Below, in pieces: positions 8,612-47,708 of a DNA stretch of 47,708 nucleotides. The notes under the pieces are model-generated. The model had not been told where the DNA came from and ran no database searches. It was given only the letters and a program-made list of their open reading frames with translations. Position numbers and translations under genes: made by a program. Every line of letters begins with the position of its first letter. Positions within the stretch are counted from its first letter, which is position 1. This DNA is from Candidatus Parcubacteria bacterium (GTDB lineage: Bacteria; Patescibacteriota; Minisyncoccia; Phycocordibacterales; Phycocordibacteraceae). The stretch spans positions 1 through 47,708 of the forward strand of contig JAKFXG010000010.1 of NCBI GenBank assembly GCA_021731495.1, written 5' to 3'.

Positions 8612-9304
8612 ATGCCCGATTTCTCTTCATTCGCCCAAAAGTGCGGTCTCTCGTTCAATAATCTTGACCTCCTTGTCGAGGCTTTGACGCACCGTTCCTA
8701 TCTGAACGAACATCGCGAATACACGGGAAGGCATAATGAACGGCTCGAATTCCTTGGCGACGCGGTCCTCGAACTCGCTGCCACCAACTTCCTTTTCAAG
8801 AAATTTCCCGCTAAGCCTGAAGGCGATCTAACGAGCTATCGCGCTGCTCTTGTGAATACCGTGTCACTTGCCGCAAGCGCACAAGCGCTCGGTATCAGTG
8901 AGTTTCTACTCCTCTCGAAAGGCGAATCGAAGGACACTGGTCGCGCGCGTGACGTAATTCTTGCAGATGCTTTCGAAGCCATTATTGGTGCAGTGTATCT
9001 CGACAAAGGATTTGAAGAAGCTGAAGCATTTATCGCGAGGAATCTCTTTGGCAAGATTGACGACGTCATCGCTAGTCGCTCGTACCAGGACGCGAAGAGC
9101 CGCTTTCAGGAAATCGCACAGGAGAAGCGCGGCACCACACCCGCGTACAAGACACTGTCCGAAGAGGGTCCCGACCACGCCAAGCTTTTCACCGTCGGGG
9201 TATTTATAGGGAAAGAAGAAATAGCTCGAGGAGAGGGACAAAGTAAGCAAGAGGCCGAACAGTCGGCGGCAGAGGCAGGTTTGAAAGCGATGCAGTGGTC
9301 GTAA
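8612..9304 (+). CDS. rnc: ribonuclease III
   Basis: ERLEFLGDAVLE signature and a C-terminal dsRBD (GPDHAKLFTVGVFIG...GEGQSKQEAEQSAA). TAAACT lies 8 nt upstream of the ATG. Confidence 0.95.
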   Translation: MPDFSSFAQKCGLSFNNLDLLVEALTHRSYLNEHREYTGRHNERLEFLGDAVLELAATNFLFKKFPAKPEGDLTSYRAALVNTVSLAASAQALGISEFLLLSKGESKDTGRARDVILADAFEAIIGAVYLDKGFEEAEAFIARNLFGKIDDVIASRSYQDAKSRFQEIAQEKRGTTPAYKTLSEEGPDHAKLFTVGVFIGKEEIARGEGQSKQEAEQSAAEAGLKAMQWS

Positions 9305-12359: not shown

Positions 12360-14483
12360 TTACGCTATCGGCACAAAGTCCAATTCCTTCTCCGCTATTC
12401 GCGCTGCCGTCAGTTTAACTTTGATGGGGTCGCCGAGGCGATAGCTCTTGTGGGTGCGGCGTCCGCGAAGCTGATAGTGCTTCTCATCGTATTCAAAATA
12501 ATCATCGCCCACGTCCTTGATGCGTATCATGCCGTCAGCGTGCGTCGTTTGCTCTTCGACATACAGGCCGCGTTCGGTGACACCTGAAATGACCGCATCG
12601 AATTCTTCGCCAATGCGTTCGGAAAGGAATTCCACCTGCTTCATTTTGATTGAGTCGCGCTCGGCATCAGAAGCCGAGACTTCGCGTTCAGAGGAGTGGA
12701 TAGCAAGTTTGTCGAACATCTCCATCTCCTGTTTCGTGATCGGATCGCCGCCCGCATGCGCTTTGATGAGCCGATGGATGATGAGGTCGGGGTAGCGGCG
12801 AATGGGGGACGTGAAGTGCGTGTAGAAATCGAATGCGAGACCGAAGTGGCCGATATTGCTCGTCGTGTAAATGGCTTTGCTCATCGAGCGGAGTGTCGCC
12901 ATCTTCACGAGATACTCCTCCGGCTTCCCTTTCACTGATTCAAGCAGTTTGTTCAGTTCTGCGCCCGTGACTGCCCCGCTCCCGTATGTTTGTAAATGGT
13001 AGCCCATAATGCGCAACAGGTTCACCAGATTTTCGATGCGGTCGGTGTCTGGCGCATCATGGACGCGATAGAGGGAATAGAAATGCTCGCCACCGTTCGC
13101 GGTTAGTTTGGAAAGATGTTTCGCTACTGCTTCATTTGCAAGGAGCATGAAGTCTTCAATGAGGAGGTTCGTCGCTTTGCGTTCTTTGAGACGGATAGCA
13201 ATTGGCTTTCCCTCGGCGTTTAACTCAACTTTCACCTCAGCAGTATCAAATTCGATAGCGCCTCTCGCTTGGCGGCGTTCTCGGATCTTCTTTGAGAGAT
13301 CGTAAAGAATGATAAGTTCCTCACCCAAGACGCCTTGGTCATTTTCTTGCGCTTCCCTAGACTCCACCGAAGGCGGAGTCGGGCGACTCGACGCCAAGGC
13401 GGCGTCGAGTGTAGCCTGGGCATTTTCATACGTAAAACGCTTGTCAGAATGGATGACCGTTTCTCCGAACCACGTGTCCTGGATGTTTGCTTCCGAATCC
13501 AGGGTGAAGACGGCGGAAACCGCGAGACGGTCCTCGTCCGGCTTGAGCGAGCAAAGGTCGGTGGAAAGCACTTCAGGGAGCATCGGGATGGTACGGTCCA
13601 CAAGATAGACGCTCGTGGCACGCGCGACGGCTTCTTTGTCGAGCGAGGTGCCGGGCTTCACGAAGAAGGAGACATCCGCGATGTGAACGCCGACCTCTAT
13701 CTTCCCATCGGGTAGCGTACGTACTGAAAGAGCGTCATCGAAATCTTTCGCGTCAAAGGGATCAATTGTGCAGGTTGGGACTTTCCGGAAGTCACGTCGC
13801 TTCGGGTTTTTTGCCTCTTCCTCAAGCATCGTGCGGCCATGTTCTCCAAGATATTTCGCATCGGACATGACCCCGGGAGGGAAGTCGCTCGAGAATCCTT
13901 GTCCAAGCGCGAGTGCGCGCATCTCGGTTTCGTGCACGCCTGCTTTGCCGATGATCTGTTCAATGGCGCCGAGGGGATATTCTTTATCCGCTTCCCAGCT
14001 GACGAGACGCACCAGTACCTTATATCCGGGTTGAGCCTCGCCCCGGTCGAGAACGACGATTGGCACATACATTTTTTTGTAATCCGGAATTAAGAGCGCC
14101 CCCTTGTTTTCCTCGACTTGCCCCGTTAGAGCTGGACGTTCGTTAGAACGTCCACTCTCTAATGGGGTAAGGGTACCGACGAACGTCTCGCGTGCGCGCG
14201 AAACAATCTCGACGACCTTTCCCGCTTCGCGGGCTGGCATACGGCCTGACGGGTCTTGGTATTTACCCGCTGGCGCAACCTTTACGATATCGCCCGCAAG
14301 CGCATGGTTGGTCCATTCCGGCGGAATGAGAAGATCTTCCTTGCCTTCTCCAATCGGGAAGAAACCGAAACCCTTTCGGGTCATCGTTATGGGGCCCTCG
14401 TAGATACCGTCCGCTGACATTTCCTGTACTCTAGCCCCGTTACAAACCAAAGTAAATGGCTTTCCTGCAATATTTCTTTGCAC
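12360..14483 (-). CDS. rnr: ribonuclease R (RNB family, C-terminal S1 domain)
   Basis: HFGLA...YTHFTSPIRRYPDLIIHR RNB motif and an S1-like C-terminus. The listed start is GTG 14483. ATG 14420 (MSADGIYEGPITMTRKGFGFF) is the more likely start, because TAGAGT lies 7 nt upstream of it. Confidence 0.9.
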   Translation of the reverse strand: MQRNIAGKPFTLVCNGARVQEMSADGIYEGPITMTRKGFGFFPIGEGKEDLLIPPEWTNHALAGDIVKVAPAGKYQDPSGRMPAREAGKVVEIVSRARETFVGTLTPLESGRSNERPALTGQVEENKGALLIPDYKKMYVPIVVLDRGEAQPGYKVLVRLVSWEADKEYPLGAIEQIIGKAGVHETEMRALALGQGFSSDFPPGVMSDAKYLGEHGRTMLEEEAKNPKRRDFRKVPTCTIDPFDAKDFDDALSVRTLPDGKIEVGVHIADVSFFVKPGTSLDKEAVARATSVYLVDRTIPMLPEVLSTDLCSLKPDEDRLAVSAVFTLDSEANIQDTWFGETVIHSDKRFTYENAQATLDAALASSRPTPPSVESREAQENDQGVLGEELIILYDLSKKIRERRQARGAIEFDTAEVKVELNAEGKPIAIRLKERKATNLLIEDFMLLANEAVAKHLSKLTANGGEHFYSLYRVHDAPDTDRIENLVNLLRIMGYHLQTYGSGAVTGAELNKLLESVKGKPEEYLVKMATLRSMSKAIYTTSNIGHFGLAFDFYTHFTSPIRRYPDLIIHRLIKAHAGGDPITKQEMEMFDKLAIHSSEREVSASDAERDSIKMKQVEFLSERIGEEFDAVISGVTERGLYVEEQTTHADGMIRIKDVGDDYFEYDEKHYQLRGRRTHKSYRLGDPIKVKLTAARIAEKELDFVPIA

Positions 14484-33460: not shown

Positions 33461-34729
33461 TTAATTGCTCGAACGAAGTCGAGCCGGAAGTTCTGACACG
33501 AGGAGCGAAGCCTCTTCGCCAGTGGCAAGTGTCTTCAGGCGCACGGTTCGATTCTTTAACTCGTCCCCACCATACGCGACGAAGAAGGGAATCCCGCGCT
33601 TCACGGCATCTTTTATCTGGTCGCCGAGTCCGCGGTCGGTGAGGTTGACGAAGACACGGTTCCCTTCTTTGCGAAGGATATCGGCAAAAGCTTGGGCGGC
33701 AGGAATATCTTCAATCGAAGGGGTGCCGAGATAGAGTTGCGGCAAACTCTCTCCCGCGCTTGGTATGAGCCCATGAGTCTCGAGAAAGTCAGCAAGCGTG
33801 ACGTCGCCGAGCGCGAAGCCAATCGCGGGAATTGGGTCGCCGCCAAAAAGCGCGAGGAGCTGATCGTAGCGCCCGCCGCCGAACAGTGCGCGTGGATTTG
33901 CGAGATTAGTATCAAAAACTTCAAAGACCATGCCGGTGTAGTAATCAAAGCCGCGGGTGATGCTTGTGTCGAAAATGATATTGCCCACGCCAAGTTTCTT
34001 GAGCGTTTCGATGCGCGCAAGAAGGCGCTGTTTTTCAACTTCGACTTCGGGTGTTGCACTCGCGTCCTCAATGAGTGCAAGCGGGTCTTTCGCTGAGATA
34101 GTACTCGATGCGGTAGCGAAAGCTTCGGGCGTCATCTTCGATTTCTTATCGAGAAGGCGCAGATATTGTCGGATGCTTTCGTCCTCGAGTCCGGCCACAC
34201 GACATGCCGCATTGAGAAGTGTGCGGGAGTTCACGCGAATGACAAAATCTTTTTCAGCAGCTCCGAATGCTTTCAGTATGGAGGAGGCGAGCCGCACGAT
34301 CTCGATATCGGCCTCGCCTTCGGCGAGGCCGATGAGATCGATGTCCGCCTGATAGAACTCGCGCAAACGACCCTTCTGCGGACGCTCGTAACGAAAACGA
34401 TTGCCGATAGAGAACCAGCGAAGCGGGAAGGGCATCTCACGGCGCTTTGCTGCGACCATGCGCGCGAGGCTCGGGGTCATTTCGGGCCGCAGCGTCACGC
34501 GCCGCTCACCGCGGTCGGTAAAGGTATACGTCTGCTCGTTGACGATTTCTTCGGAGGTCTTCGCTTCATAGAGCTCGGCGCGCTCAAGCGGGGAGGCGTT
34601 GTATTCTTCGTAGCCCCAGAGCGTGAGCGTCTCGCGAATGCGTGCAAAGATTGCCATTTGCCGTGCCCAGTCGGCAGGGTAGAAATCGCGGACGCCCTTG
34701 TAGGGGTCGGTAGAAAGCGGCTCGGACAT
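33461..34729 (-). CDS. hisS: histidyl-tRNA synthetase
   Basis: RPEMTPSLARM, FRYERPQKGRLREFYQ (motif 2), GGGRYDQL (motif 3) and an anticodon-binding C-terminus. Confidence 0.95.
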   Translation of the reverse strand: MSEPLSTDPYKGVRDFYPADWARQMAIFARIRETLTLWGYEEYNASPLERAELYEAKTSEEIVNEQTYTFTDRGERRVTLRPEMTPSLARMVAAKRREMPFPLRWFSIGNRFRYERPQKGRLREFYQADIDLIGLAEGEADIEIVRLASSILKAFGAAEKDFVIRVNSRTLLNAACRVAGLEDESIRQYLRLLDKKSKMTPEAFATASSTISAKDPLALIEDASATPEVEVEKQRLLARIETLKKLGVGNIIFDTSITRGFDYYTGMVFEVFDTNLANPRALFGGGRYDQLLALFGGDPIPAIGFALGDVTLADFLETHGLIPSAGESLPQLYLGTPSIEDIPAAQAFADILRKEGNRVFVNLTDRGLGDQIKDAVKRGIPFFVAYGGDELKNRTVRLKTLATGEEASLLVSELPARLRSSN

Positions 34730-37614: not shown

Positions 37615-37660
37615 GGAATACAAAAACGCCTGCACGAAAGTGCAGGCGTTTTTGTATTCC
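37615..37660. terminator. bidirectional terminator with a 21-bp perfect stem
   Basis: GGAATACAAAAACGCCTGCAC-gaaa-GTGCAGGCGTTTTTGTATTCC. It lies 10 nt past the stop of the RRM gene. Confidence 0.8.
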
Positions 37661-37669
37661 GGCGAGGAA

Positions 37670-38038
37670 TTAGTATCCGCCGCGGCCGTATCCGCCGCCA
37701 TTGCCGCCGCCAAAACCGCCGCGATCACCGCCTCCGAAACCGCCTTCGCGGCGAGGAGGACGATCACCCTGCGGGCGGGCGAAAGAAACGGAGAGCGTGC
37801 GCCCGTCCATTTCCTTGCCATCCCAACGGTCGATAGCCGCCTGAGCTTCCGCTTCGGTAGCCATCTCGACGAAGCCGAAACCGCGTGAGCGGCCGGTCAT
37901 ACGATCGCTGATAATGCTCGCGGAAACGACAGTACCGGCCTCGCTAAAGGCCTTCTTCATATCGTCTTCCGTTGAGCGGTAGGGGATGCCGCCTACGTAA
38001 AGCTTGTTCCCCTGAACTGCTGGCTGCTGATTGTCCAT
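37670..38038 (-). CDS. RRM-type glycine-rich RNA-binding protein
   Basis: RNP2 is LYVGGIPY and RNP1 is RGFGFVEM. The C-terminal tail is RGG/GGF-rich. Confidence 0.85.
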   Translation of the reverse strand: MDNQQPAVQGNKLYVGGIPYRSTEDDMKKAFSEAGTVVSASIISDRMTGRSRGFGFVEMATEAEAQAAIDRWDGKEMDGRTLSVSFARPQGDRPPRREGGFGGGDRGGFGGGNGGGYGRGGY

Positions 38039-38998: not shown

Positions 38999-39112
38999 CG
39001 CCTCCTCCTCTGCGCAGACACTTCAAAGTTCCTCATGAAGTAAACCGCCCAGGCACAAGAGTGGTCAAGTGAGCAGGTGTGCATTAGAAAAGCCATCCCT
39101 TCGGGGCGTTGT

Positions 39113-39141
39113 CAATACAAGGTGGAACCTTGTATTGGTGG
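39113..39141 (+). repeat. REP hairpin, GGA loop (left flank)
   Basis: CAATACAAGGT-GGA-ACCTTGTATTG-GTGG. Its 3' end supplies the TGg of the TGgTAGGAT box at 39139..39147, 7 nt upstream of the RAYT ATG. Confidence 0.8.
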
Positions 39142-39154
39142 TAGGATTATCTCA

Positions 39155-39820
39155 ATGAATAGAAAGATTTCCTTCGCCGAAGGAGAGTACTACCACATTT
39201 ATTGTAGGGGAGTGGAGAAGCGCGACATTTTCCTAGATAACAAGGATCGGGAGCGCTTTCAGGCGCTTTTATTTTTATGTAACGGCACAAAACCGGTCGT
39301 ATACAGACTAGTACAAGGTTCCACCTTGTATCAAACCGACGTTGGAGTAAAGACCGTAGCTGTCGGCGCCTATAAGCTTATGCCTAACCATGTCCACATA
39401 TTGGCGAAAGAAATTTCAGAAAACGGCATTACCGAATTTATGCGAAAAGTTAATACAGCTTATTCAATGTATTTTAATAAAAAGTATGAGAGAGTCGGGC
39501 CGCTTTTTCAGGGCACTTTTGGCGCTGAACACGTAACGAGAGATGATCACTTGAAATATTTATTTGCCTACATCCATCTCAATCTTATAAAGCTGATTGA
39601 ACCAAAATGGAAAGAGGTTGGGATCAAGAATCTCCAGAGAGCAAAAGATTTTCTTGAGAATTACCCCTTCTCAAGTTACCTAAGTTACTGTGGCAAAACG
39701 CGCAAAGAGAATAGTATTTTATCGGAAAAAGAATTCCCGGATTATTTTTTACAAAAGCACGATTTCAAAGATTTTATCAGTGATTGGCTTACATTTAATG
39801 CGCAAGATCTGGGTTTATAG
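39155..39820 (+). CDS. REP-associated tyrosine transposase (Y1/HUH, IS200-like)
   Basis: YHIYCRG, the HUH motif MPNHVHIL, AYSMYFNKKYERVGPLFQGTF and the catalytic Tyr region YLFAYIHLN. The start is taken at MNRKISFAEGEYY. Confidence 0.85.
   Translation: MNRKISFAEGEYYHIYCRGVEKRDIFLDNKDRERFQALLFLCNGTKPVVYRLVQGSTLYQTDVGVKTVAVGAYKLMPNHVHILAKEISENGITEFMRKVNTAYSMYFNKKYERVGPLFQGTFGAEHVTRDDHLKYLFAYIHLNLIKLIEPKWKEVGIKNLQRAKDFLENYPFSSYLSYCGKTRKENSILSEKEFPDYFLQKHDFKDFISDWLTFNAQDLGL
39311..39332 (-). repeat. REP core inside the RAYT coding sequence (TCC loop, inverted orientation)
   Basis: GTACAAGGT-TCC-ACCTTGTATC, in frame, encoding LVQGSTLYQ. Confidence 0.7.
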
Positions 39821-39828
39821 AAACACAT

Positions 39829-39853
39829 CCAATACAAGGTTCCACCTTGTATC
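39829..39853 (-). repeat. REP hairpin, TCC loop (right flank, proximal)
   Basis: CCAATACAAGGT-TCC-ACCTTGTATC, 9 nt past the RAYT stop. Confidence 0.8.
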
Positions 39854-39920
39854 AGTATGAAATTGCCAGTGGTGTTGCTTTTTGGAGGGTTTAGAGCACA
39901 ATACCCATGGAAGTCACCTG

Positions 39921-39959
39921 CCACCACCAATACAAGGTGGAACCTTGTATTGGTGGTGG
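39921..39959 (+). repeat. extended REP hairpin with 18-bp arms, GGA loop (right flank, distal)
   Basis: CCACCACCAATACAAGGT-GGA-ACCTTGTATTGGTGGTGG. Confidence 0.85.
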
Positions 39960-39985: not shown

Positions 39986-40636
39986 ATGACGAAAGCTCTG
40001 CTGCTCCTCTGCGTTACGACTTTATTTCTCGTTACCACATGTGACAGTCGGCCAGCCTTTTTTCAAGCCCCTGAGCAGAAGAGCTTGGTCGCCAGCTCGC
40101 AGGAGGATGATCGAATACTCGAATACCTCTTCGAGTTGAGGGAAGTTCAGAACGAGGCCGGGACAAGCGTTATCAAAGCAATCACGGATGCCGAGGCTAC
40201 TCTCAGGAAACTCGATATGTTGGGAACCCGCCTGAACTGTGCGGTCATAAACCTTCGGGACGAAGAGGTTCTGCAGGCAGTGATACGCGAGTATCAGGGG
40301 CTCGTAAGAGCGACGGAGATATTGCTCGACGCCGAAGTAGGTTTGCCGGAGTATTTGCAAATAGTCTCTCCGGAAGACCTGCGCGCGCAAATAGCGGGGC
40401 ATAAAATCGGCCGTATCCTTTTCTCGCAGAACCTTCTCTATCTGGAAGGAAGAATCCAAGCATGCGGCAAAGACCGCCATCTCGCACCGTCCAGCCCGTT
40501 TCGAAGCCGTCCTGAAAGGACGGCTTCTTTGTGTTATTCACACGTTATGCACATTTGTATGCACCAGAGTAAATTTCAAATAAAGCCCGTTCTTGGCTCT
40601 GGAAGGTCAGACCTTGGAGAGCGAAGCTGTGGATAA
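39986..40636 (+). CDS. putative lipoprotein, 3' end doubtful
   Basis: Signal peptide with a lipobox-like LVTTC. SD GGGGGA is upstream. A terminator-like hairpin at 40503..40535 lies about 100 nt before the stop, and the sequence after it looks non-protein-like. Confidence 0.45.
   Translation: MTKALLLLCVTTLFLVTTCDSRPAFFQAPEQKSLVASSQEDDRILEYLFELREVQNEAGTSVIKAITDAEATLRKLDMLGTRLNCAVINLRDEEVLQAVIREYQGLVRATEILLDAEVGLPEYLQIVSPEDLRAQIAGHKIGRILFSQNLLYLEGRIQACGKDRHLAPSSPFRSRPERTASLCYSHVMHICMHQSKFQIKPVLGSGRSDLGERSCG
40503..40535 (+). terminator. intrinsic terminator-like hairpin inside the 39986 ORF
   Basis: GAAGCCGTCC-tgaaa-GGACGGCTTC followed by TTTGTGTTATT. Confidence 0.5.
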
Positions 40637-40748
40637 CGACTGTTTTTCGTCTCCGCCAAAGAATTGACATTCTAAATGACGGGTATTTACTGACCCTAGT
40701 TGCAGACGGGCGTCTGTCACGGATAGGTAATCTCTTCGTCTTGACTCT

Positions 40749-40814
40749 TAACGTTTGAGTCTCGGCAGATTCCGCGCCGCCGCTGCGGCGGCGCGGAGGA
40801 GCCGGGACTTGAGC
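40749..40814 (+). repeat. 66-nt structured repeat, copy 1 (190 nt upstream of TasA-like gene 1)
   Basis: TAACGtTTGAGTCTCGGCAGATTCCGCGCCGCCGCTGCGGCGGCGCGGAGGAGCCGGGACTTGAGC. It matches copy 2 at 65 of 66 positions. Confidence 0.85.
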
Positions 40815-41003
40815 GAGACCGCGAGAGTCCTGCGGGAGATTTTGTAACGAGAAAACAGTGTGAACGGCATACATAGTTGTGAGGGTAAGTTGGGGCATTT
40901 GTGAAAAGAATAGAATATGTTCTTTCGTTTTCTCGATGTTCTTTGTTTAGTGTTTGTGCGAATTATTAAGGTGCGTTATTAAAAAATAAATAGTTTAATT
41001 AAT

Positions 41004-42674
41004 ATGACAACGATTCTTAACAAAAAGATTCTCTTGAGTCTGGGAACGCTGGTGTTCGTCGGCGCAGTAGCCCTCGGAGCAACGGGCGCATTCTTCTCGG
41101 ACACAGAGACTTCAACCGGCAATACGTTCACCGCCGGTGCGATTGATCTCGGCGTTGACAACGAATCCTATTACAATGGTGTCCTTAATCAAGGAACATC
41201 TTGGGAACTTGACTGGGACCTTTCAGACGAAACTCCTCGTCAGCTCTTCAACTTCTTGGATCTAAAGCCAGGAGATTGGGGAGAGGATACGATCAGTCTT
41301 CACGTGAAGAATAATGATTCTTACCTCTGCGCGGACGTGACTCTCACAAGTAACGAAGACAATGATCAGACAGAGCCAGAGATAGATGACGGAGACTTGG
41401 TTGCTAACAACGGTCCTCAAACCAATGATGGTGAATTAGCTAGCCACCTTCGCTTCGTTTGGTGGGCAGATGATGGAGACAATGTCTTGGAAGATAACGA
41501 GACCCCAATCCACAACAATGTTCCTCTAGGTTCTGGCACTGTAGCTCTTGCTGATTCTCAGACAAACATCTGGGGAGACCTTAATGGAACACTTCCTGGC
41601 AACGGCCCTCTTCCTGGCGCCTCAACTAGATACATTGCAAAAGCATGGTGCTTTGGAGCTTTGACCACAAATCCCCTCAGTCAGGACGGTCTTGGAACTA
41701 CATCACCTCGTACCCCAGCTAATTCTACGGGTGGGGTGGCTTGCAATGGTGCAGATGAAACAAATATCACTCAAACAGACAGCGTAACTCTTGACGTCGC
41801 ATTCCGCGCTGTTCAGTCTCGTAACAACACTTCTTTCGTTTGTTCAGCTCCTACTCAAGGAGAACAGCGCCCAAGAGTCGGTGCGCTTCTTAGCGCGTAT
41901 GACGCCCCAACGTGCAATGTCACGGTTTCTGGCAGTGGTTCAATTCAGACAGCTGTTGGCAATGCAGAAGACGGCGACGTGGTCTGTGTTGACTCGACAT
42001 ATAACGGCTCCGGGGATAGTGCGGCTATCCGCATCGAGAATGCAGGCGTAACGCTTGCAGCTACAGTGAGGGGAGTCGACTTGTTCGATCCAATTGTGTT
42101 GAGCGCAAGCAATGTAACAGTCACCGGTTTTGATGGGGTGATTGGACAGGCAGAAAGTCCAGCCGAACAGGCAGCTTTCTACCTCGATAACGATGCGGAT
42201 CTCTCCGAAATATCGTTCAACACTGTAACTGGTGGCACTGGAGCAGCCATTCTTACTGAAACGGGTGCTGCTCTTGGTGGTGGCTTGATCGCGAACAACG
42301 TTCTTGGTGGTGCAACTCAAGGTATCTACACCAATCCTCACACTGGCGTATTCGTGATTGAATATAACGACATTGATAACAATGCCGCAGGTATCGGAGG
42401 GTTGATGGGCGCAATAGTTCGTAACAACGAATTCGAGCACACTGTCGCCGGATCAGAAGCTATTGGAGTTGACTCAACTCACGACGCCAACCCAGCGACT
42501 GTCAGCTTCAACAACTTCCTCGGTGGAACCAAGTTGAATACTTATGGTCCGATTGCAGGTGATGTAGATGCAGAAGATAACTTCTGGGGTCCAAGTGGCG
42601 GTGCCGCCCAGACTGGTGGTTCCGACGAAGTCGACTTCACTCCTGAGGAAGTCAGTGCATTCCTGCATAACTAA
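41004..42674 (+). CDS. TasA/camelysin-like secreted protein with a SipW-type signal peptide and a C-terminal right-handed beta-helix domain
   Basis: The N-terminus ...VGAVALGATGAFFSDTETSTGNTFTAGAIDLGV parallels B. subtilis TasA (GGGTWAAFND...ASGTLDL). The core blocks FNFLDLKPGDWGEDTISLHV and TQTDSVTLDVAFRAVQSRNN are shared with the next ORF. The last ~250 aa carry beta-helix-like turns (NNVLGGATQGIYTN, YNDIDNNAAGIGG, VRNNEFEH). Confidence 0.8.
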   Translation: MTTILNKKILLSLGTLVFVGAVALGATGAFFSDTETSTGNTFTAGAIDLGVDNESYYNGVLNQGTSWELDWDLSDETPRQLFNFLDLKPGDWGEDTISLHVKNNDSYLCADVTLTSNEDNDQTEPEIDDGDLVANNGPQTNDGELASHLRFVWWADDGDNVLEDNETPIHNNVPLGSGTVALADSQTNIWGDLNGTLPGNGPLPGASTRYIAKAWCFGALTTNPLSQDGLGTTSPRTPANSTGGVACNGADETNITQTDSVTLDVAFRAVQSRNNTSFVCSAPTQGEQRPRVGALLSAYDAPTCNVTVSGSGSIQTAVGNAEDGDVVCVDSTYNGSGDSAAIRIENAGVTLAATVRGVDLFDPIVLSASNVTVTGFDGVIGQAESPAEQAAFYLDNDADLSEISFNTVTGGTGAAILTETGAALGGGLIANNVLGGATQGIYTNPHTGVFVIEYNDIDNNAAGIGGLMGAIVRNNEFEHTVAGSEAIGVDSTHDANPATVSFNNFLGGTKLNTYGPIAGDVDAEDNFWGPSGGAAQTGGSDEVDFTPEEVSAFLHN

Positions 42675-42697
42675 GTTATCAACTCGAATAAAGAATT

Positions 42698-44017
42698 ATG
42701 AAGAAAATATTACTTAGCGCTGGGACGATTGCGGTCGTTGCGACCCTTGCTGTCGGCGGAACCATGGCGTTCTACAACGACACGGAGACCTCGACGGGCA
42801 ATATCTTCACTGCCGGCTCGATCGACCTCAAGGTTGACCAGACGATGGCGTCATACAATGGCGAGCAGTGTCAGACGTGTCATCTTGAAATAGTGAGCAA
42901 CAACACGACAGTGGTTGGCTCATCGCCGGCAGTCGAGCTTTCAGTTGTTCATCCAGCGTGGACAGCCGACCTTGATGGCGGGCATGTCGCGGGTATGCCG
43001 AACGACGGAGCCAATGACGGTTCGAAGTGGATCTGGATAACGGATGGCCCAACAGTTCCAACCACTGATCAAGACTACACATTTGACCGAACATTCGTGT
43101 GGAACGGTACGGCAAGTGACGCAGTGCTCTATATTGCCACCGACAACCTCTATACGAGCATTCGGTTGAACGGCCATCTTATCGGTTCGACAGCAAATGA
43201 CAATAACTTCCAACTCGCAACGGAAGATGTCTTTACGACTGCCGCCGATGCAGCACAGCTTGAGTCAAAACTTGTCCAAGGTACGAATCTTCTCCAAGTT
43301 ACCGTGCGCAATCTTGGTTTGAGCGGGAGTACCGCGGCAAGCAATCCGGCCGGACTTCTCTTCAAACTTGAAATTGACGGAAGTTGCCAGGGCAGTCAGC
43401 AAGGTGGAGGTGCGTACCAGAACACTCCGGGCGCAACCTGCGAGCTCTGGGGTCCCCAGGACCTCACGAGCCAGAATTACTTCGACTTCGAAGACGTGAA
43501 GCCGGGAGACGAAGGTACGAACCTCATCTCGCTTCATGTGGACAGTAACGACGCGTACGCGTGTTTGATCCCACATGACCTTAACGATAAGGAAAACACG
43601 CTCGTGAGCCCGGAAACTGATGCGGGTGACCTACCGAACACAGGTAATCTCGCAGAATGGGGCGAACTCTCCGATTATCTCGAATTCTTCGTCTGGAGAG
43701 ATAACGGCGATGGTGCGTATCAGGCTAGCGAGCAAGTACTCGTCAATGTCGGCACAACCATTGATCAAATTCAGCCAGAAATGCTTGCTCTGCAACTCAC
43801 CGGCGGAGGCCCGACAGAATACATAGGTCTCGCATGGTGTGCAGGAACCCAGGCCTCTACTACGGCCCCGAGCATTACTTGCGATGGAAGTGGTATGAGC
43901 AACAAAGCTCAGACCGACTCATTGATTGCGTCATTGACCGCATACGCGGTGCAGGTCAGGAACAACGATGACTTCTCTTGTGCGGACGTTGATCTCGACC
44001 CAGAGCAGCCAGACTAG
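42698..44017 (+). CDS. TasA/camelysin-like secreted protein with a ~190-aa domain inserted after the N-terminal strand
   Basis: MKKILLSAGTIAVVATLAVGGTMAFYNDTETSTGNIFTAGSIDLKV. The paralogous core resumes at CELWGPQDLTSQNYFDFEDVKPGDEGTNLISLHV and ends at AQTDSLIASLTAYAVQVRNN. Confidence 0.8.
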   Translation: MKKILLSAGTIAVVATLAVGGTMAFYNDTETSTGNIFTAGSIDLKVDQTMASYNGEQCQTCHLEIVSNNTTVVGSSPAVELSVVHPAWTADLDGGHVAGMPNDGANDGSKWIWITDGPTVPTTDQDYTFDRTFVWNGTASDAVLYIATDNLYTSIRLNGHLIGSTANDNNFQLATEDVFTTAADAAQLESKLVQGTNLLQVTVRNLGLSGSTAASNPAGLLFKLEIDGSCQGSQQGGGAYQNTPGATCELWGPQDLTSQNYFDFEDVKPGDEGTNLISLHVDSNDAYACLIPHDLNDKENTLVSPETDAGDLPNTGNLAEWGELSDYLEFFVWRDNGDGAYQASEQVLVNVGTTIDQIQPEMLALQLTGGGPTEYIGLAWCAGTQASTTAPSITCDGSGMSNKAQTDSLIASLTAYAVQVRNNDDFSCADVDLDPEQPD

Positions 44018-44076
44018 TAAGCAAAAAGTTCCTTGATCCCATTAGAACTATGCTTACTTCTAACGGGACAAGTTCG

Positions 44077-44142
44077 TAACGCTTGAGTCTCGGCAGATTC
44101 CGCGCCGCCGCTGCGGCGGCGCGGAGGAGCCGGGACTTGAGC
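44077..44142 (+). repeat. 66-nt structured repeat, copy 2 (ends 7 nt upstream of the sipW ATG)
   Basis: Same sequence as 40749..40814, except C instead of T at the sixth position. Confidence 0.85.
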
Positions 44143-44149
44143 AGGCAAC

Positions 44150-44710
44150 ATGCACAATCTCTACAAAATCGGTTACTACGCATTCGTTGGCGCCGTCGTC
44201 GCGCTCGGTCTTCTCTTGGTGGTGTCTCTGGTGCCGATACCGGGGAACATCGAAGTAAAGATAGTGCAATCGGGTTCGATGGAGCCCACGATCAAGACGG
44301 GCGCGCTCACGGTGGTCAAGCCTTTCACGAAGTATGCGGTGGGAGATGTCATCATGTTCGGCCCGGACACGAAGACAGAGGTCCCGACGACGCACCGCAT
44401 CATCGCAGACGAAGTGAGAAGCGGCGTCTTCTACTACACGACGAAGGGAGATGCGAACGAAGACCCCGACCCCCAGCCTGTGCGGCAGAGCGAGGTGATA
44501 GGGAAGGTGCTCCTCGACATTCCCTACCTCGGCTACCTACTGGATTTCGCCAAAAAGCCGCTCGGATTCATTCTCCTCATCGGTGTGCCGGCGGCAATTG
44601 TGGTATTCGACGAGGCGGGGAAGATATGGCGAGAGGTGCGGAAGATAAATAGGAAGGAGGAAGAGCCTCTCGGGAATACCGCGTATGACACCAGCCAAAA
44701 CAAAAATTAA
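44150..44710 (+). CDS. sipW: signal peptidase I, ER/archaeal (SipW) type
   Basis: N-terminal TM helix, the SGSMEPTIKTGAL catalytic Ser box, HRII, TKGDANEDPD, and a C-terminal TM helix (LGFILLIGVPAAIVVF). It lies among substrates bearing SipW-type signal peptides. Confidence 0.85.
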   Translation: MHNLYKIGYYAFVGAVVALGLLLVVSLVPIPGNIEVKIVQSGSMEPTIKTGALTVVKPFTKYAVGDVIMFGPDTKTEVPTTHRIIADEVRSGVFYYTTKGDANEDPDPQPVRQSEVIGKVLLDIPYLGYLLDFAKKPLGFILLIGVPAAIVVFDEAGKIWREVRKINRKEEEPLGNTAYDTSQNKN

Positions 44711-47123
44711 AAAAAGGACTGCAAAGAAAACGCCGCGTGCCGTGCGTTCCGGCGTGCGAGTGAAGAAGATAGCCCGGAAGAGAGCAGGGAGGGTCGCGCT
44801 ATCAGCCAGAGTGATCGATCTGCGTCCCCCTCGCCGCGCACGCGCACCACGCAAGAACAAGCGGAAAAGCGTCCGCTCGCCGTTTGTCGCGCTCGCGCCG
44901 CGCGTATTGCTCAAACTTCTCGCCGCTACGCTCATGGTGAGTCTGAACGGCGCCGGACTGCTTGGCGTCGGTTACACTGCGGCATATTACAATGACCACG
45001 AGGATTCTTCGGGGAATGCTTTTGCAGCCGGCTCGGTCGATTTCTCCCTATCGGCTATCGCATGGAACCCGCTCCAGGCGTCTCTCAATATGCAGCCGGG
45101 AACTACGACCACAAAGACATTTGCTCTCAATGAGGGGTTGAGCAACCCATTTCAATACTTCGCATCGACCACGCTTATGGGCGGCGATGTCCCATTTTGT
45201 AACGGCATCAACGTATCGCTTACCCAAGCAAGCACTACGCTCTTTACCGGAGCGCTCTCCGCGCTCGTAACGGCGACGACGACGTCCACAACCACGCTCG
45301 CTCTCTCCGCGACAACGGGTACAAACAATTTCCAAAACAGCGTCTGCCTCTTTGGTCTCGATTTCAATGGTTGGCAGACACGGCACGAGTACCTCACATT
45401 TGAAGACGGCGGATTCAACGATACCGAGAGAGCAACCACGACGCTCGCATCGTGGGGCTTCCGTTTGAATAAAGTGTATTACGACGTAGAAACGCCCGAG
45501 CGCGGCGAAGAGGGCGATAACGAATGGGTGGAAATTTATAATCAGACAAATGTGCCTTTGGATATTTCAAATTGGGAGATTTGCGACAACACTTCCTGCG
45601 ACACGATACCCGCGGGCACGCCCACAGTCTCTGCACAGGGGTACGCGATGATAACTAATAATCCGAACACGGCTTCGGCGACAGGAACGGCGCCGTGGTA
45701 TCTGCCTCCCGGCGTCGTGTACATTCCGCTTGGAGAAAATATCGGCAACGGCCTCCACAATGACGCAGACATGCTGGTATTGAAGCGGCCGGACGGCGTC
45801 GTGATAGACCAGATGAATTACGGAACACCGGACCCGAGTTGGGTAAACTACGCGGCCTATCAATCAGGCATATGGGACCCGGGTGCGACCGATGTGGCAG
45901 AGGGGAATCTACTTGCGCGCATTCCTTCCGGCTACGACACCGACCAGGCGTCGGACTGGCATGAGATAACCCCGCCGGCGCTCGACCTCATCTATCCCGA
46001 CGAAGGCGCTTCCTACACGTGGTATTGGACTCACACCTACACGATCAGATGGACGGCAACGAATCCTAACGGTCCCGACAGCGCTCTCTCCATCGCGCTC
46101 TTTTATATCCTCGACGAGGATAACTCACACTCAATAACGCCGGTGGACACGACTCACACCATAACACTGGCGACCGATAACGACGGCGCATACAAGTGGA
46201 AGGTGCCGTCCGGTTTCATCGGCTACATTTGGATTACTCTTGTCGCAACAGGGCCTGAGAATCCGCTTAACAACACACGCACAGTGTCCGGTAAAATTTA
46301 CGACCCGGAGCCGATATTCATCGGTCCCGAGGGTATTGACCCGGAGGATCTCGATCTCATCGCGCCGGTCATCACCATCCTCGGCGATAATCCGACGCTC
46401 GTGCCACTTGGGGCGGCTTTTGAGGACCTTGGTGCAGACGTGTCCGACAATGTGAGCCAGAACCTCAGCTACGCAACTCTCGGCGAAGTGGATACCGCGG
46501 TCCTCGGCGAGTACGCCATCACATATACCGCATTTGATGAAATGGGGAACACGGCGACCTCGACCCGCGCGGTCATCGTCTACGATCCGGCAGTCGGCCC
46601 TCCGACTTTTGAGGAACCAGCACCCGACCCAGTCGCTGACGAATCGGCGCTTGGCACCGGCGAGGAGCAAGAGGCCAATGTAGGAAATGCTCCGGTTGCC
46701 GCCGGGGAGGGCCAACAACAGGACACGACTGCCGCTACTGAAATCATCAACACTCTACTTACGGTCGATGCGGCCATTAAAGAAGAAGGAGAAACTACCA
46801 CGTCCATTGTCGACGAGGAGGGTGATGGTGCGGATGCCGACCAAAATGAGGCGCTTAACACGCCTACGGAGGAGCCAACTCTTGGTGGGGAGAGCTCGAT
46901 ACCGGAAGAAATTTCCGGAGGCGAGACCAGCGGTGAAATACTTCCTGACGCGTTGTCTATAGGGGCGACTGAGGTGCGCGAAGAAGAAGTTCTCCCACCG
47001 GAAGAAGCTGTTTCTGAAGCGATTGTAGAAGCGCCGGCCGAACCGGTTGTTACGGAACCTGAGGCGCCGTCAGTCGCGGTCGAGAGCGCTCCAGTCGAAC
47101 CGGCTCCAGCTCCGGCCGAATAA
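44685..47123 (+). CDS. large secreted multidomain protein: SipW-type N-terminal motif, lamin-tail domain, Ig-like domains and an acidic disordered tail
   Basis: LLGVGYTAAYYNDHEDSSGNAFAAGSVDFSL. The LTD-like block is RLNKVYYDV...GDNEWVEIYNQTNVPLDISNWEICD...NDADMLVLKRPDGVVIDQMNYG. The DUF5011-like block is APVITILGDNPTLVPLGAAFEDLGADVSD...YAITYTAFDEMGNTAT. The last ~170 aa are an E/P/A-rich tail. The start is uncertain (ATG 44685 versus TTG 44907). Confidence 0.8.
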   Translation: MTPAKTKIKKRTAKKTPRAVRSGVRVKKIARKRAGRVALSARVIDLRPPRRARAPRKNKRKSVRSPFVALAPRVLLKLLAATLMVSLNGAGLLGVGYTAAYYNDHEDSSGNAFAAGSVDFSLSAIAWNPLQASLNMQPGTTTTKTFALNEGLSNPFQYFASTTLMGGDVPFCNGINVSLTQASTTLFTGALSALVTATTTSTTTLALSATTGTNNFQNSVCLFGLDFNGWQTRHEYLTFEDGGFNDTERATTTLASWGFRLNKVYYDVETPERGEEGDNEWVEIYNQTNVPLDISNWEICDNTSCDTIPAGTPTVSAQGYAMITNNPNTASATGTAPWYLPPGVVYIPLGENIGNGLHNDADMLVLKRPDGVVIDQMNYGTPDPSWVNYAAYQSGIWDPGATDVAEGNLLARIPSGYDTDQASDWHEITPPALDLIYPDEGASYTWYWTHTYTIRWTATNPNGPDSALSIALFYILDEDNSHSITPVDTTHTITLATDNDGAYKWKVPSGFIGYIWITLVATGPENPLNNTRTVSGKIYDPEPIFIGPEGIDPEDLDLIAPVITILGDNPTLVPLGAAFEDLGADVSDNVSQNLSYATLGEVDTAVLGEYAITYTAFDEMGNTATSTRAVIVYDPAVGPPTFEEPAPDPVADESALGTGEEQEANVGNAPVAAGEGQQQDTTAATEIINTLLTVDAAIKEEGETTTSIVDEEGDGADADQNEALNTPTEEPTLGGESSIPEEISGGETSGEILPDALSIGATEVREEEVLPPEEAVSEAIVEAPAEPVVTEPEAPSVAVESAPVEPAPAPAE

Positions 47124-47127
47124 CGAT

Positions 47128-47708
47128 ATGACTACCTTACTCAACACCAATCGAATACTGCCGGCACTGGTCGCGGGGGTGATTGCCGCGCTCGTGTTCG
47201 GTGCTTCTCCGGCGCATGCGGAGGGCCCTCTCACGGTAGATTTTGAGCGAGACCCGTTGTTTGGCGAGGTGAATTTCTTGCCGGGAGACATGCGAGACGG
47301 CGATGTGACGGTGACAAATGGCACGGACGTCGCACAGAATATATACACGGAATCCATAAACGGATTTGACCCGGACGGGCTCGGGAGTCAGCTACGCCTC
47401 AGGGTATTTGAGAATACAAACCCAGTGCCGATTTACAGTGACGAGTTCGATGACTTCCTCTCAGCCGGTCCCGTACCGCTCTCACTCCTTGGTGCTGGCG
47501 CTACTAAAACCTATACATTTGAAGTTTCCTTTATCGATTCCGCCGACAATGACTACCAAGGGAAATCACTCGGCTTCGATCTCTGCATCGGATTTGCCGG
47601 TAGCGGTCTCCAATGCGGTAACACGGTTGTGAGTGACCCTGAAAGCGTGGTGCCGCCGCCAGGCGGCGGTAGTGGCGGCGGGAGCGGAGGCGGCAACGGC
47701 GGCGGGGG
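47128..47708 (+). CDS. TasA-fold-like secreted protein with a conventional signal peptide, 3' end outside window
   Basis: The frame is open from ATG 47128 to the window end, so it is absent from the ORF track, which needs a stop. Signal peptide ...ALVFGASPAHA/EGP. FLPGDMRDGDVTVTNG and NDYQGKSLGFDLCIGF resemble the TasA blocks NLKPGDKLTKDFQFENNG and NKYQGNSIKLQFSFEA. The visible end is a Gly-rich run. Confidence 0.6.
   Translation, partial: MTTLLNTNRILPALVAGVIAALVFGASPAHAEGPLTVDFERDPLFGEVNFLPGDMRDGDVTVTNGTDVAQNIYTESINGFDPDGLGSQLRLRVFENTNPVPIYSDEFDDFLSAGPVPLSLLGAGATKTYTFEVSFIDSADNDYQGKSLGFDLCIGFAGSGLQCGNTVVSDPESVVPPPGGGSGGGSGGGNGGG

Follow-up and report, generated by a model that had tools for sequence, protein, structure and literature searches.

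Why should a bacterial locus for surface fibres carry the same 66-nt sequence twice, once ahead of its first subunit gene and once ahead of its signal peptidase gene? The locus lies in a 47,708-nt stretch of DNA (hereafter the window) from a Candidatus Parcubacteria bacterium. The CPR/Patescibacteria are mostly uncultivated, and post-transcriptional control in these organisms is almost unknown. The genes of the locus run in the order tasA-like, tasA-like, sipW and then large LTD/Ig proteins:

41004 to 42674, plus strand: tasA-like gene 1 (tasA1), 556 aa, SipW-dependent signal peptide (PF12389, 23.1 bits; TIGR04088, 23.7 bits, cut-off 19)
42698 to 44017, plus strand: tasA-like gene 2 (tasA2), 439 aa, SipW-dependent signal peptide (PF12389, 27.2 bits; TIGR04088, 25.8 bits)
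44150 to 44710, plus strand: sipW, archaeal-type signal peptidase I, 186 aa (PF10502; TIGR02228, 101 bits, cut-off 51.85)
44685 to 47123: gene for an LTD/Ig-like protein with a TasA-like N-terminus, overlapping sipW by 26 nt

A repeat search of the window returned a two-copy direct-repeat family at 40746-40814 and 44074-44142 (69 nt, 2 differences, 97%). Within it, the 66-nt copies at 40749-40814 and 44077-44142 agree at 65 positions and differ only at T40754 against C44082, which is the figure that an initial annotation of this DNA had given. That annotation had seen no further copy in the window, and indeed none was found with up to three mismatches, where chance would yield no match either. 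It had also proposed a fold for the plus-strand RNA, which was recovered: the 14-bp outer helix (40753-40766 with 40801-40814, and 44081-44094 with 44129-44142), its three G·U pairs at element positions 8-63, 9-62 and 14-57, and the variable site, a U·G pair in copy 1 and a C-G pair in copy 2. The inner GC helix and its loop are likewise present, although RNAfold adds a U-A and two loop-closing pairs and so lengthens the helix from the proposed 10 bp to 13 bp with a 3-nt loop. The elements discussed below are:

40753 to 40814, plus strand: copy 1, a lineage-specific duplicate in the predicted 5' UTR of tasA1 (repeat match, fold), differing from the copy 2 hairpin at 40754 only (U·G for C-G)
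44081 to 44142, plus strand: copy 2, the ancestral element (sequence, fold, homologs at the same junction in 16 other lineages)
44081 to 44094 paired with 44129 to 44142, plus strand: lower stem of copy 2 (fold)
44095 to 44098 (AGAU) opposite 44126 to 44128 (GGA), plus strand: internal loop of copy 2 (fold)
44099 to 44109 paired with 44115 to 44125, plus strand: upper stem of copy 2, terminal loop 44110 to 44114 (fold)

The stability of the fold is exceptional. On the plus strand the copies reach -53.4 and -53.8 kcal/mol (z = -7.5; none of 200 shuffles as stable), against only -39.6 and -44.7 kcal/mol on the minus strand, and in a sliding 80-nt scan of both strands they were the two most stable folds of the window (-55.2 and -55.0; mean -20.1, sd 6.1). 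Copy 2 starts 63 nt past the stop codon of tasA2; its end and the sipW ATG at 44150 are 7 nt apart, the distance first reported. The two minus-strand open reading frames noted earlier (40545-40898 and 44060-44395) are present, each crossing a copy.

We considered whether the repeat belongs to this locus or is scattered through the genome, with copies at many random sites and in either orientation. In four metagenome runs, the repeat unitig had a depth of 73-98 against about 40 for each of three unique flanking contigs; the k-mer depth of the repeat was about twice that of its flanks, and only these three contigs touched it. The organism has exactly two copies, and with homologs confined to one locus type and one strand (below), the locus-specificity that had been suggested holds, not the dispersed alternative. 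Further afield, a 22-mer of the element occurred in only two JGI metagenome contigs, one of which is a homologous locus. When the full element was scanned as an exact gapped pattern against GTDB representative genomes, nothing matched, and homologs were therefore reached via SipW instead. A match in one metagenome (L006) was set aside as chance or unrelated sequence, being 25 nt within a coding frame and without the 3' arm.

Two 69-nt direct repeats that bracket exactly both subunit genes could also act at the DNA level, as sites for deletion, excision or amplification of the 3.3-kb tasA1-tasA2 segment and hence for phase or dosage variation. We regard this as hardly credible. The middle contig had the same depth as its flanks in all four runs, no deletion junction appeared in the contigs (which can hide rare variants), and relatives have a single copy, so that recombination cannot be the function of the family.

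The distribution of the element was charted with two covariance models (R1 and R2), a search that the initial annotation had suggested. Over 1.0 Mb from 91 sources, R1 gave 14 strong matches and R2 gave 17, all in tasA-sipW loci on the sipW strand at 49-92 bits, against 14-31 bits for the reverse strand; neither model found a homolog outside such loci in the 1 Mb searched. The matches that R2 added to R1 were weak only (a second copy in L015, and L031 and L060). Sixteen other Paceibacteria (CPR) lineages have a homologous hairpin at the same junction and on the sipW strand, in most cases immediately before sipW, and the host group of the element is Kaiserbacteria-like Paceibacteria. In relatives the hairpin begins 17-30 nt past the tasA2 stop. 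In one lineage (L015) two genes in a row are each followed by a hairpin; in L014, L031 and L060 the hairpin lies 3' of a TIGR04088-type gene. Across homologs, 6 to 40 nt separate the stem from the sipW start, a spread which argues for an element of the upstream 3' end and not of the sipW ribosome-binding site. Its ancestral site is a few to about 30 nt past the stop of a SipW-processed fibre or surface protein gene, which in the closest relatives is right before sipW. Beyond this family, about half of 80 Paceibacteria sipW loci have an exceptional hairpin (z ≤ -2.5) at the junction, often two-tiered and unrelated in sequence; the two-tier hairpins of the more distant Paceibacteria may be homologous or analogous to the element.

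The homologs provide the evidence that the pairing is conserved as RNA. The U/C substitution that separates the 66-nt copies had been offered as such evidence; pairing is indeed kept at this site, although the difference is weak evidence alone and the real evidence comes from other species. Among 14 homologs, 97.9% of cells pair on the plus strand, compared with 31-46% when partners are slid out of register. True compensatory changes, for which the initial annotation had wished to look, are abundant: both partners have changed in 17 of 24 pairs, and each of the 10 upper-stem pairs covaries, values reached by none of 500 shuffles, and an alignment of 17 sequences gave the same result. The strand is equally clear. 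Only 84.4% of cells pair on the minus strand, 48 cells are G·U against 3 that are A·C, and every one of the 14 homologs is more stable on the plus strand (by 9.7 kcal/mol on average), in line with the original reading of the element as plus-strand RNA. The repeat is therefore a real, evolutionarily conserved RNA stem-loop.

Conservation is unevenly spread along this stem-loop. Sequence is conserved in the lower stem, in the purine-rich 4x3 internal loop and in a 5' flank motif, TAGyTCyTTGAC, whereas the upper stem conserves pairing but is free in sequence and the terminal loop varies freely, being inverted between L009/L094 and L101. The internal loop is asymmetric in the 14 homologs, RRAU opposite RGR, with A44097 nearly invariant and G44127 invariant in the family alignment; it does not appear to match the K-turn or loop-E consensus. 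The 14-bp lower and 8-13-bp upper stems stack into a duplex of 23-27 bp in homologs. Such constancy of sequence in lower stem, loop and flank suggests that a specific partner, not necessarily RNase III, recognises the element.

Comparison of the flanks suggests how one element became two. The features concerned are:

39077 to 39820: Y1 (REP-associated-like) transposase gene, 1 kb upstream of copy 1 (domain/profile matches)
40664 to 40691, plus strand: candidate operon promoter, block TTGACA-N14-GGTATTTACT upstream of tasA1, conserved in the window, L088, L097 and L091
40713 to 40897, plus strand: lineage-specific insertion in the tasA1 leader, approximate, about 180 nt, holding copy 1
40740 to 40752, plus strand: 5' flank motif of copy 1, intact, CTTGACTCTTAAC, preceded by AATCTCT (family alignment, blastn)
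44028 to 44080, plus strand: 5' flank of copy 2, motif parts GTTCCTTGAT (44028-44037) and TTCGTAAC (44073-44080)

The intact flank of copy 1 resembles that of the sipW-upstream element in relatives (…AAATCTCTAGyTCCTTGACTCTyAAC), and blastn aligned window positions 40740-40772 with L102 5986-6018 at 91%. At copy 2 the motif is split by a 35-nt palindromic insertion (44038-44072; CCCATTAGAA-ctatgcttac-TTCTAACGGG-ACAAG), a member of a second, dispersed palindromic family of this genome, and because of this insertion the gap between tasA2 stop and hairpin is 63 nt here, compared with 17-30 nt in relatives. We measured the distance between conserved anchors in the tasA1 leader: from the promoter-like block to a conserved GTTCTTT block it is 227 nt in the window and 42-53 nt in L088, L097 and L091. 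No tasA1-upstream counterpart of copy 1 was present in L007, L088, L091, L094 or L097, and the parts of the insertion outside the hairpin matched nothing among the other sequences compared. On these comparisons, copy 2 is ancestral and copy 1 a lineage-specific and recent duplicate of a junction segment of at least 75 nt, moved into the tasA1 5' UTR; the two copies are not equivalent. Through this duplication tasA1-tasA2 came to be bracketed by two near-identical hairpins; copy 1 may have a use there, for instance in leader processing, or may simply be tolerated. The promoter role of the block at 40664-40691, which a consensus promoter scan did not call, is suggested by the conservation of the block; if it is the promoter, copy 1 would begin about 60 nt into the transcript.

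The arrival of copy 1 at a new site raises the question of a selfish or neutral palindromic repeat (REP, MITE or IS200-type PATE) spreading by transposition without a host function. The Y1 gene upstream of copy 1, the truly dispersed second family with a member inserted beside copy 2, copy 1 itself and the loop inversion between L009/L094 and L101, which would reflect hairpin dynamics at the DNA level, all lend this idea some appeal. We nonetheless think it very improbable. The organism has no more than two copies; 16 other lineages share the position, the strand and the neighbours; the covariation is strong, of RNA type and biased towards G·U; and model R2 found no copies outside tasA-sipW loci in 1 Mb. 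The palindromes flanking the Y1 gene (CAATACAAGGTGGAACCTTGTATTGG) are unrelated in sequence to the hairpin, and the Y1 gene of the window has only 35% identity to that of L094. Copy number, constant position and orientation, and the unmatched transposase-flanking palindromes all argue against a REP, MITE or PATE identity; the core sites of an IS200 end are missing. An integron attC site was also rejected, as neither copy is followed by GTTRRRY in the flanks read and there is no integrase among the annotated proteins of the window.

We then asked whether the hairpin is any known RNA. At gathering score, Rfam 15 had no match in the whole window; at the element there was none even at E ≤ 10 (40400-44400), nor any in 12 homologous loci, and a literature search found no earlier description of this hairpin. 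A riboswitch or ligand-sensing leader was rejected, since this is a single unbranched hairpin in which only the 4x3 loop is conserved while upper stem and terminal loop vary; nor does the element offer an alternative terminator or anti-terminator. The TTGAC of the 5' flank does not make an internal promoter: its spacing to the sole -10-like sequence, in the loop, is 19-22 nt, there is no TATAAT-like hexamer and no scan called it, and a start there would leave out the 5' arm, which covaries.

Transcription termination needed closer attention, as a canonical terminator lies upstream of the promoter-like block:

40503 to 40537, plus strand: intrinsic terminator, 11-bp stem and T-tract (terminator scan)

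Terminators with a U-tract are thus in use in this genome, and transcripts from further upstream probably end before copy 1. The element itself has the G+C-rich stem-loop of a terminator (-52 to -55 kcal/mol). However, the scan that called 40503-40537 did not call it, and no U-tract follows the stem in any of 17 homologs, whose tails include AGGCAACATG, AGACAACATG, AAAATCACAT and GGAGCCACGC. No promoter-like site was found in the 7 nt between stem and sipW ATG or inside the stem. With no U-tract, and with sipW so close past the stem that there is no room for a promoter, a full intrinsic terminator is ruled out; because sipW begins 7 nt past the stem, read-through of the hairpin is required. 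A partial, leaky terminator or attenuator lacking a U-tract might still reduce transcription into sipW and the genes downstream. A very stable GC-rich hairpin straight after the stop of highly expressed structural genes would suit this role and would yield the same excess of subunit over peptidase. We think it improbable, given that none of the 17 homologs has a U-tract although the genome has such terminators, that sipW has no other transcription route, and that copy 1, ahead of tasA1, would then hold back expression of the main fibre genes.

The element might instead act on translation. An earlier remark that no Shine-Dalgarno sequence is visible before sipW is true but unremarkable: such sequences are almost absent at 25 genes examined in this genome, so their absence before sipW is not special. 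A switch or RNA thermometer that sequesters one was rejected, for GGAGGA (44123-44128) is 22 nt from the AUG, too far away, Shine-Dalgarno initiation is almost unused and the stem-AUG distance ranges from 6 to 40 nt. More simply, the hairpin could keep the sipW start structured so that few ribosomes load in SD-free initiation. Many genes here are A/T-rich upstream, whereas the region before sipW is GC-rich and fully paired to -8, and in the window, L088, L097 and L008 a gap of 5-10 nt separates the hairpin from the start codon. Against this, the distance is 15-40 nt in L009, L091, L094, L100 and L101, and in L014, L015, L031 and L060 the hairpin precedes other, non-sipW genes or is distant from sipW. 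As the main function, translational damping is therefore quite unlikely; the variable distance and the other downstream genes mean that it can be only a local side effect, although with its end 7 nt before the AUG the hairpin probably also reduces ribosome loading on sipW in this SD-less genome.

What the element does resemble is a hairpin at which polycistronic mRNA is processed or stabilised. The window encodes the enzymes that such a role would call for:

8612 to 9304, plus strand: RNase III gene (rnc; Ribonucleas_3_3, 1.8e-40, with Ribonuclease_3 and dsrm)
12360 to 14483, minus strand: RNase II/R-family 3'→5' exoribonuclease gene (rnr; RNB domain, 1e-110, with CSD2 and S1)

Like an RNase III site of the phage T7 R1.1 type, the element has a duplex of at least about 20 bp, an asymmetric internal loop and a host that encodes RNase III; like stabilisers of the puf/pap type, it sits just 3' of a structural gene and 5' of accessory genes. 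We therefore propose, with about even confidence for and against, that it is an intercistronic mRNA processing or stability hairpin resembling an RNase III substrate. The operon would be transcribed through the hairpin into sipW, and RNase III, the candidate trans-acting cutter of the ~25-bp hairpin, would cut the duplex at the internal loop or close to it, in the manner of T7 R1.1-type sites. Alternatively, the duplex would merely block 3'→5' exonucleases after a cut downstream, the RNase II/R-family enzyme being of the kind that a 3' hairpin may hold off. Either way, the tasA-like segment with its 3' hairpin cap would outlast the segment with sipW and accessory genes, giving many subunits and little peptidase. 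Most likely, then, the hairpin would set the relative survival of subunit and peptidase messages. A plain exonuclease barrier, it should be said, needs no strong conservation of lower stem, internal loop and 5' flank. Copy 1 is left unexplained by the logic of a subunit-cistron 3' end because no tasA-like gene lies upstream of it. We know of no description of the RNase III determinants of CPR bacteria.

The conserved parts could equally be read as an RNA operator, with lower stem, 4x3 loop and 5' flank binding a dedicated RNA-binding protein, a regulator or autoregulator, of sipW translation or decay and, via copy 1, of tasA1. Sequence is indeed held in the lower stem, at A44097 and G44127 and in the flank while the upper stem drifts, and the duplicate in the tasA1 leader would place both ends of the transcription unit under one factor. 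An RRM-type gene resembling 'Rbp_regulator' lies 3 kb upstream at 37670-38038, scoring 97.6 bits, below the cut-off of 100; it adjoins tasA1 in L088 but lies away from the locus in L091, L094, L097 and L102. No candidate protein accompanies the element throughout, the tasA1 copy is missing from relatives, and the unrelated hairpins at the same junction in other lineages argue that shape counts more than sequence. We accordingly judge an operator unlikely. A bolder version, doubtful though somewhat easier to entertain, would make the element the founding member of a CPR-specific class of 'operon punctuation' RNAs: a sequence-specific operator (lower stem, 4x3 loop, TAGyTCyTTGAC flank) whose dedicated reader, be it RNase III using a lineage-specific code or an RNA-binding regulator, would set the ratio of TasA-type subunit to peptidase across Paceibacteria. 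Here the operator would have been copied, so that both subunit genes are excised as a discrete, doubly capped message.

Whichever reading applies, the element is an RNA motif not described before, although its kind is familiar. With unusually clean covariation, restriction to one operon type and absence from Rfam, it could be deposited as a new family using models R1 and R2. TasA-type fibres are plausible attachment structures for the episymbiotic CPR lifestyle, and the hairpin together with the organism's own RNase III offers an in-vitro handle that does not depend on culturing and could reveal how protein stoichiometry is set within operons of minimal genomes. The duplication that gave copy 1 is a natural experiment on an element moved into a 5' leader.

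Several known systems invite comparison. Homologs of PF12389 have been noted in Patescibacteria (PMC9245690). Like the Bacillus subtilis tapA-sipW-tasA operon, the locus encodes TasA-type substrates together with a dedicated signal peptidase of archaeal type, SipW, but the order here is tasA-like, tasA-like, sipW and large LTD/Ig proteins, and we found no literature description of a comparable conserved RNA hairpin in the Bacillus operon. With REP/BIME, MITE and IS200/IS605-derived palindromes the element shares an imperfect intergenic palindrome of 60-70 nt, a nearby Y1 gene and one clear duplication; unlike them, it is not dispersed, is fixed in position and orientation and covaries in an RNA-strand-specific manner.

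Closer parallels lie among the hairpins of polycistronic mRNAs. In Rhodobacter puf, Escherichia coli pap (papB-papA) and the malE-malF REP, intercistronic mRNA-stabilising hairpins set subunit stoichiometry. The element likewise stands directly 3' of an abundant structural subunit gene and before less-needed genes of the operon, and differential stability of the segments is the outcome expected for it; their hairpins, however, show no cross-species sequence conservation such as that of its lower stem and loop, and the malE-malF REP is one of a repeat family spread over the genome, whereas the element has two copies. The RNase III sites of the R1.1 type in phage T7 early mRNA are irregular hairpins of about 60 nt, with two stems of more than 20 bp and a small asymmetric internal loop. 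The element has no sequence similarity to them, its host is a CPR bacterium, its conserved single-stranded 5' flank motif is not known for T7 sites, and the apparent likeness is one of architecture. That architecture is nevertheless the same, placed between cistrons of a polycistronic mRNA in a host that encodes RNase III, and we predict that after cleavage the upstream message would, as at the T7 sites, keep the hairpin at its 3' end and be protected by it.

The initial annotation described two near-identical copies of a 66-nt sequence in the tasA-sipW locus, each folding into a bipartite plus-strand hairpin, with no third copy in the window. This description holds. The direct repeat (40746-40814 and 44074-44142) spans 69 nt with 2 differences and forms one two-copy family; over the 66 nt first delimited, 65 positions are identical, and a search allowing up to 3 mismatches found no further match to either half of the element elsewhere in the 47.7 kb window. 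Folded in silico, both copies gave the described hairpin, in which a small internal loop separates a 14-bp lower stem (three G·U pairs in copy 2, four in copy 1) from an upper stem rich in GC, at -53.4 and -53.8 kcal/mol (z ~ -7.5) for plus-strand RNA. The reverse complement of each copy folded 9-14 kcal/mol less stably, and when both strands were folded in sliding segments of 80 nt, the two copies were the most stable structures of the whole window. The relevant features are as follows.

8612-9304: RNase III gene
12360-14483: RNase II/R-type 3' exonuclease gene
40753-40814 (+): hairpin copy 1, in the tasA1 leader
41004-42674 (+): TasA-like protein gene 1 (tasA1), SipW-dependent signal peptide
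42698-44017 (+): TasA-like protein gene 2 (tasA2), SipW-dependent signal peptide
44081-44142 (+): hairpin copy 2, between tasA2 and sipW
44150-44710 (+): SipW, archaeal-type signal peptidase
overlapping sipW: large LTD/Ig protein gene

Many scattered copies would have marked the element as a dispersed repeat or MITE. Copy number was estimated from Logan contigs of four runs containing the organism, mapped to both copies. In these contigs the repeat is collapsed into a 60-nt unitig with k-mer depths of 79.8, 83.2, 98.2 and 73, whereas depth is ~40 in the three unique contigs that adjoin it, of 19 kb on the left, 3,328 bp in the middle and 12 kb on the right. There were no additional flanks in these runs, and the organism therefore carries two copies. 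The same contigs showed no amplification and no visible deletion of the intervening tasA1-tasA2 segment.

A 22-mer scan of JGI metagenomes returned a homologous locus (L007) ordered tasA-like, tasA-like, element, sipW, whose element carries a G-C to A-U change in the upper stem and a G-C to G-U change in the lower. Further loci were gathered through SipW (80 from GTDB, 16 from metagenomes). The closest relatives of this SipW belong, by annotation, to Candidatus Kaiserbacteria and other Paceibacteria (CPR bacteria); PF12389 homologs in Patescibacteria were already recorded by Wang et al. (PMC9245690). The same junction, 3' of the final tasA-like gene and 5' of sipW, holds the element in L007, L008, L009, L017, L032, L088, L091, L094, L097, L100, L101 and L102. 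A covariance model of 14 sequences was run against 1.0 Mb drawn from 91 sources. It matched exactly these junction elements plus the window copies at 57-92 bits, all on the sipW strand and, window copy 1 excepted, directly upstream of sipW; reverse-strand scores were 14-31 bits. A wider, 17-sequence model gained L010, L014 and L015 at 49-52 bits and weakly matched a second L015 copy, L031 and L060. Within the sequence covered, the search in relatives proposed in the initial annotation confines homologs to tasA-sipW loci and to the sipW strand. Rfam gave no match for the window or 12 homologous loci. In an unrelated metagenome contig (L006, 9667-9691), 25 nt inside a coding frame exactly match the 5' arm, internal loop and upper-stem start; the 3' arm is missing, and this is probably a chance match, which was set aside.

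Of the pair cells in the alignment of 14 sequences, 97.9% hold standard pairs on the plus strand, compared with 31-46% when partners were slid by 1-3 columns. Compensatory change is evident, as 17 of 24 pairs are altered on both sides (10/10 in the upper stem, 7/14 in the lower), none of 500 shuffles equalled any observed covariation measure, and the 17-sequence alignment left this picture unchanged. The proposal that the element acts as plus-strand RNA is likewise borne out: of the cells, 279 are Watson-Crick, 48 are G·U and 3 are A·C, the remaining 4 being other combinations; minus-strand pairing falls to 84.4%, and in 14/14 hairpins the plus strand is the more stable, with a mean advantage of 9.7 kcal/mol. 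Such a pattern marks a gene-sense RNA rather than a DNA cruciform or antisense RNA, and the element is very probably a selected, cis-acting plus-strand RNA structure.

The lower stem (GCUUGAGUCUCGGC paired with GCCGGGACUUGAGC) hardly varies in sequence apart from recurrent toggling between wobble and Watson-Crick pairs, and leads into an asymmetric 4x3 purine-rich loop, RRAU opposite RGR, in which A 44097 is nearly invariant and G 44127 invariant. The upper stem (8-13 bp) differs wholly in sequence among lineages, terminal loops measure 3-19 nt, and the stacked duplex totals 23-27 bp. The 18-19-nt terminal loop ACTTCGCATAAAGCTACGC of L009 (2460-2529) and L094 (5904-5969) appears as its reverse complement in L101 (3832-3896), a small inversion between the upper-stem arms. 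Most homologs carry a single-stranded motif, TAGyTCyTTGAC-N7-9, ahead of the stem. Strong sequence conservation of lower stem, loop and flank is what a protein operator, with the hairpin as binding site, would predict, although we regard this as unlikely.

Homologous stems begin 2-30 nt 3' of a stop codon, usually that of a gene with a SipW-dependent signal peptide (TIGR04088), and lie 6-40 nt from the next start codon. The hairpin follows each of two successive genes in L015, and a substrate gene other than the last before sipW in L014, L031 and L060. Given this placement and the variable start distance, the element acts like an appendage to the 3' end of subunit cistrons and not like part of the sipW ribosome-binding site. 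In about half of the 80 GTDB loci, the stretch immediately ahead of sipW contains an exceptional hairpin (z <= -2.5 relative to the background of that locus), which is often two-tiered, has no U-tract and shares no alignable sequence with the element family. In seven Nomurabacteria-like loci (L018, L019, L033, L034, L036, L071, L075) a small second hairpin, AAGGCyTTnAAAGCCT, which may be a separate conserved motif, lies 3' of the large hairpin, ahead of the sipW start.

The two window copies are not equivalent. The element was not found upstream of tasA1 in relatives. Like the window, L088, L091 and L097 keep two features upstream of tasA1, a promoter-like block (TTGACA-N14/15-GGTATTTACT; window 40664-40691) and a leader rich in U that contains GTTCTTT repeats (window 40917-41003). 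They are 42-53 nt apart in relatives versus 227 nt in the window, whose extra ~180 nt include copy 1. Copy 2 is therefore ancestral; copy 1 arose when at least 75 nt of the tasA2-sipW junction were duplicated, and it stands in the predicted tasA1 5' UTR, ~60 nt past the promoter-like block. Copy 1 retains an intact family-type flank (AATCTCT..CTTGACTCTTAAC); that of copy 2 is interrupted by a 35-nt palindromic insertion (44038-44072), which accounts for a stop-to-stem distance of 63 nt against 17-30 nt in relatives. Copy 1 is either recently duplicated or kept identical by gene conversion, whereas the two paralogous hairpins of L015 differ in their upper stems. The long conserved tasA1 leader is unusual, since leaders are very short or missing at most genes of this genome, and with the promoter-like block it may form a separate regulatory element.

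The insertion is one member of another palindromic family, this one truly dispersed, with the pattern CTTG-CCCCGTTAGA-(variable inner hairpin)-TCTAAYGGGG-yAAG:

Window: 3472-3525, 14117-14171, 44038-44072
L094: ~5845-5895
L035: 862-907, 2225-2270

Two members lie in frame within essential genes, dnaE (…TPLEISAEDGAILTGQ…) and the RNase R gene (…TPLESGRSNERPALTGQ…), reminiscent of Rickettsia palindromic elements. The degenerate member beside copy 2 sits after TTGAT, and that of L094 between duplicated TTGAC. Upstream of the locus is a Y1 gene (39077-39820; IS200-like/REP-associated-tyrosine-transposase-like) with four CAATACAAGGTGGAACCTTGTATTGG palindromes around it:

39113-39142
39307-39333
39830-39859
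39928-39957

L094-L096 also have a Y1 gene upstream of tasA1 but, at only 35% identity, not an ortholog. A 216-aa ORF (39986-40636) with a lipoprotein-like N-terminus (MTKALLLLCVTTLFLVTTC) reads through the canonical intrinsic terminator at 40503-40537 and has therefore probably been called too long at the 3' end. Next to the gene for an RRM-type RNA-binding protein (37670-38038), which comes close to NCBIfam 'Rbp_regulator', lies a perfect 22-bp hairpin bordered by A/T runs at both ends (37615-37661), probably a bidirectional terminator. The 12-nt Gly-rich tandem repeats (GGCGGCGGTAGT…) at the window end (47662-47706) are probably inside the next surface-protein gene.

How might the hairpin work? 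No promoter fits within or after it, and sipW starts 7 nt past the stem; sipW must therefore be transcribed through the hairpin, which excludes a full terminator. A U-tract 3' of the stem is absent in every homolog, while canonical terminators do occur in the genome (e.g. 40503-40537); a leaky terminator, which would let some transcription pass, is improbable and ranks after the protein operator. The initial annotation also reported no Shine-Dalgarno sequence before sipW. The absence is real but ordinary, because the genome hardly uses one (nearly absent at 25 gene starts, e.g. 14552, 33461-34729, 36862, 9485), and sequestration by the hairpin is rejected on the same ground. A TATAAT-like hexamer ~7-10 nt ahead of the start codons of rpsP, hisS, DUF1360 and smc suggests that leaderless or near-leaderless mRNAs are widespread.

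The long irregular duplex, the conserved asymmetric loop, the site between cistrons and the RNase III and exonuclease genes of the window best support an intercistronic processing or stability signal, acting by RNase III-type cleavage or 3' exonuclease blockage, a reading to which we give about even odds. The tasA-like and sipW cistrons would be needed in very different amounts. Cleavage could occur at or near the internal loop, as at T7 R1.1-type sites, which are cut by RNase III, or the hairpin might simply block 3' exonucleases; by either route the hairpin-capped tasA-like message would outlast that of sipW and accessory genes and, as a side effect in this genome, ribosomes might reach sipW poorly.

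The element fails the defining tests of an intrinsic terminator, dispersed repeat, riboswitch, Shine-Dalgarno switch and attC site, belongs to no curated RNA family, and no earlier description was found in the literature. It makes a good candidate for description as a new RNA family, restricted to Paceibacteria tasA-sipW operons, and its proposed working resembles that of known intercistronic hairpins, namely the T7 RNase III sites and the puf, pap and malEF stabilisers.
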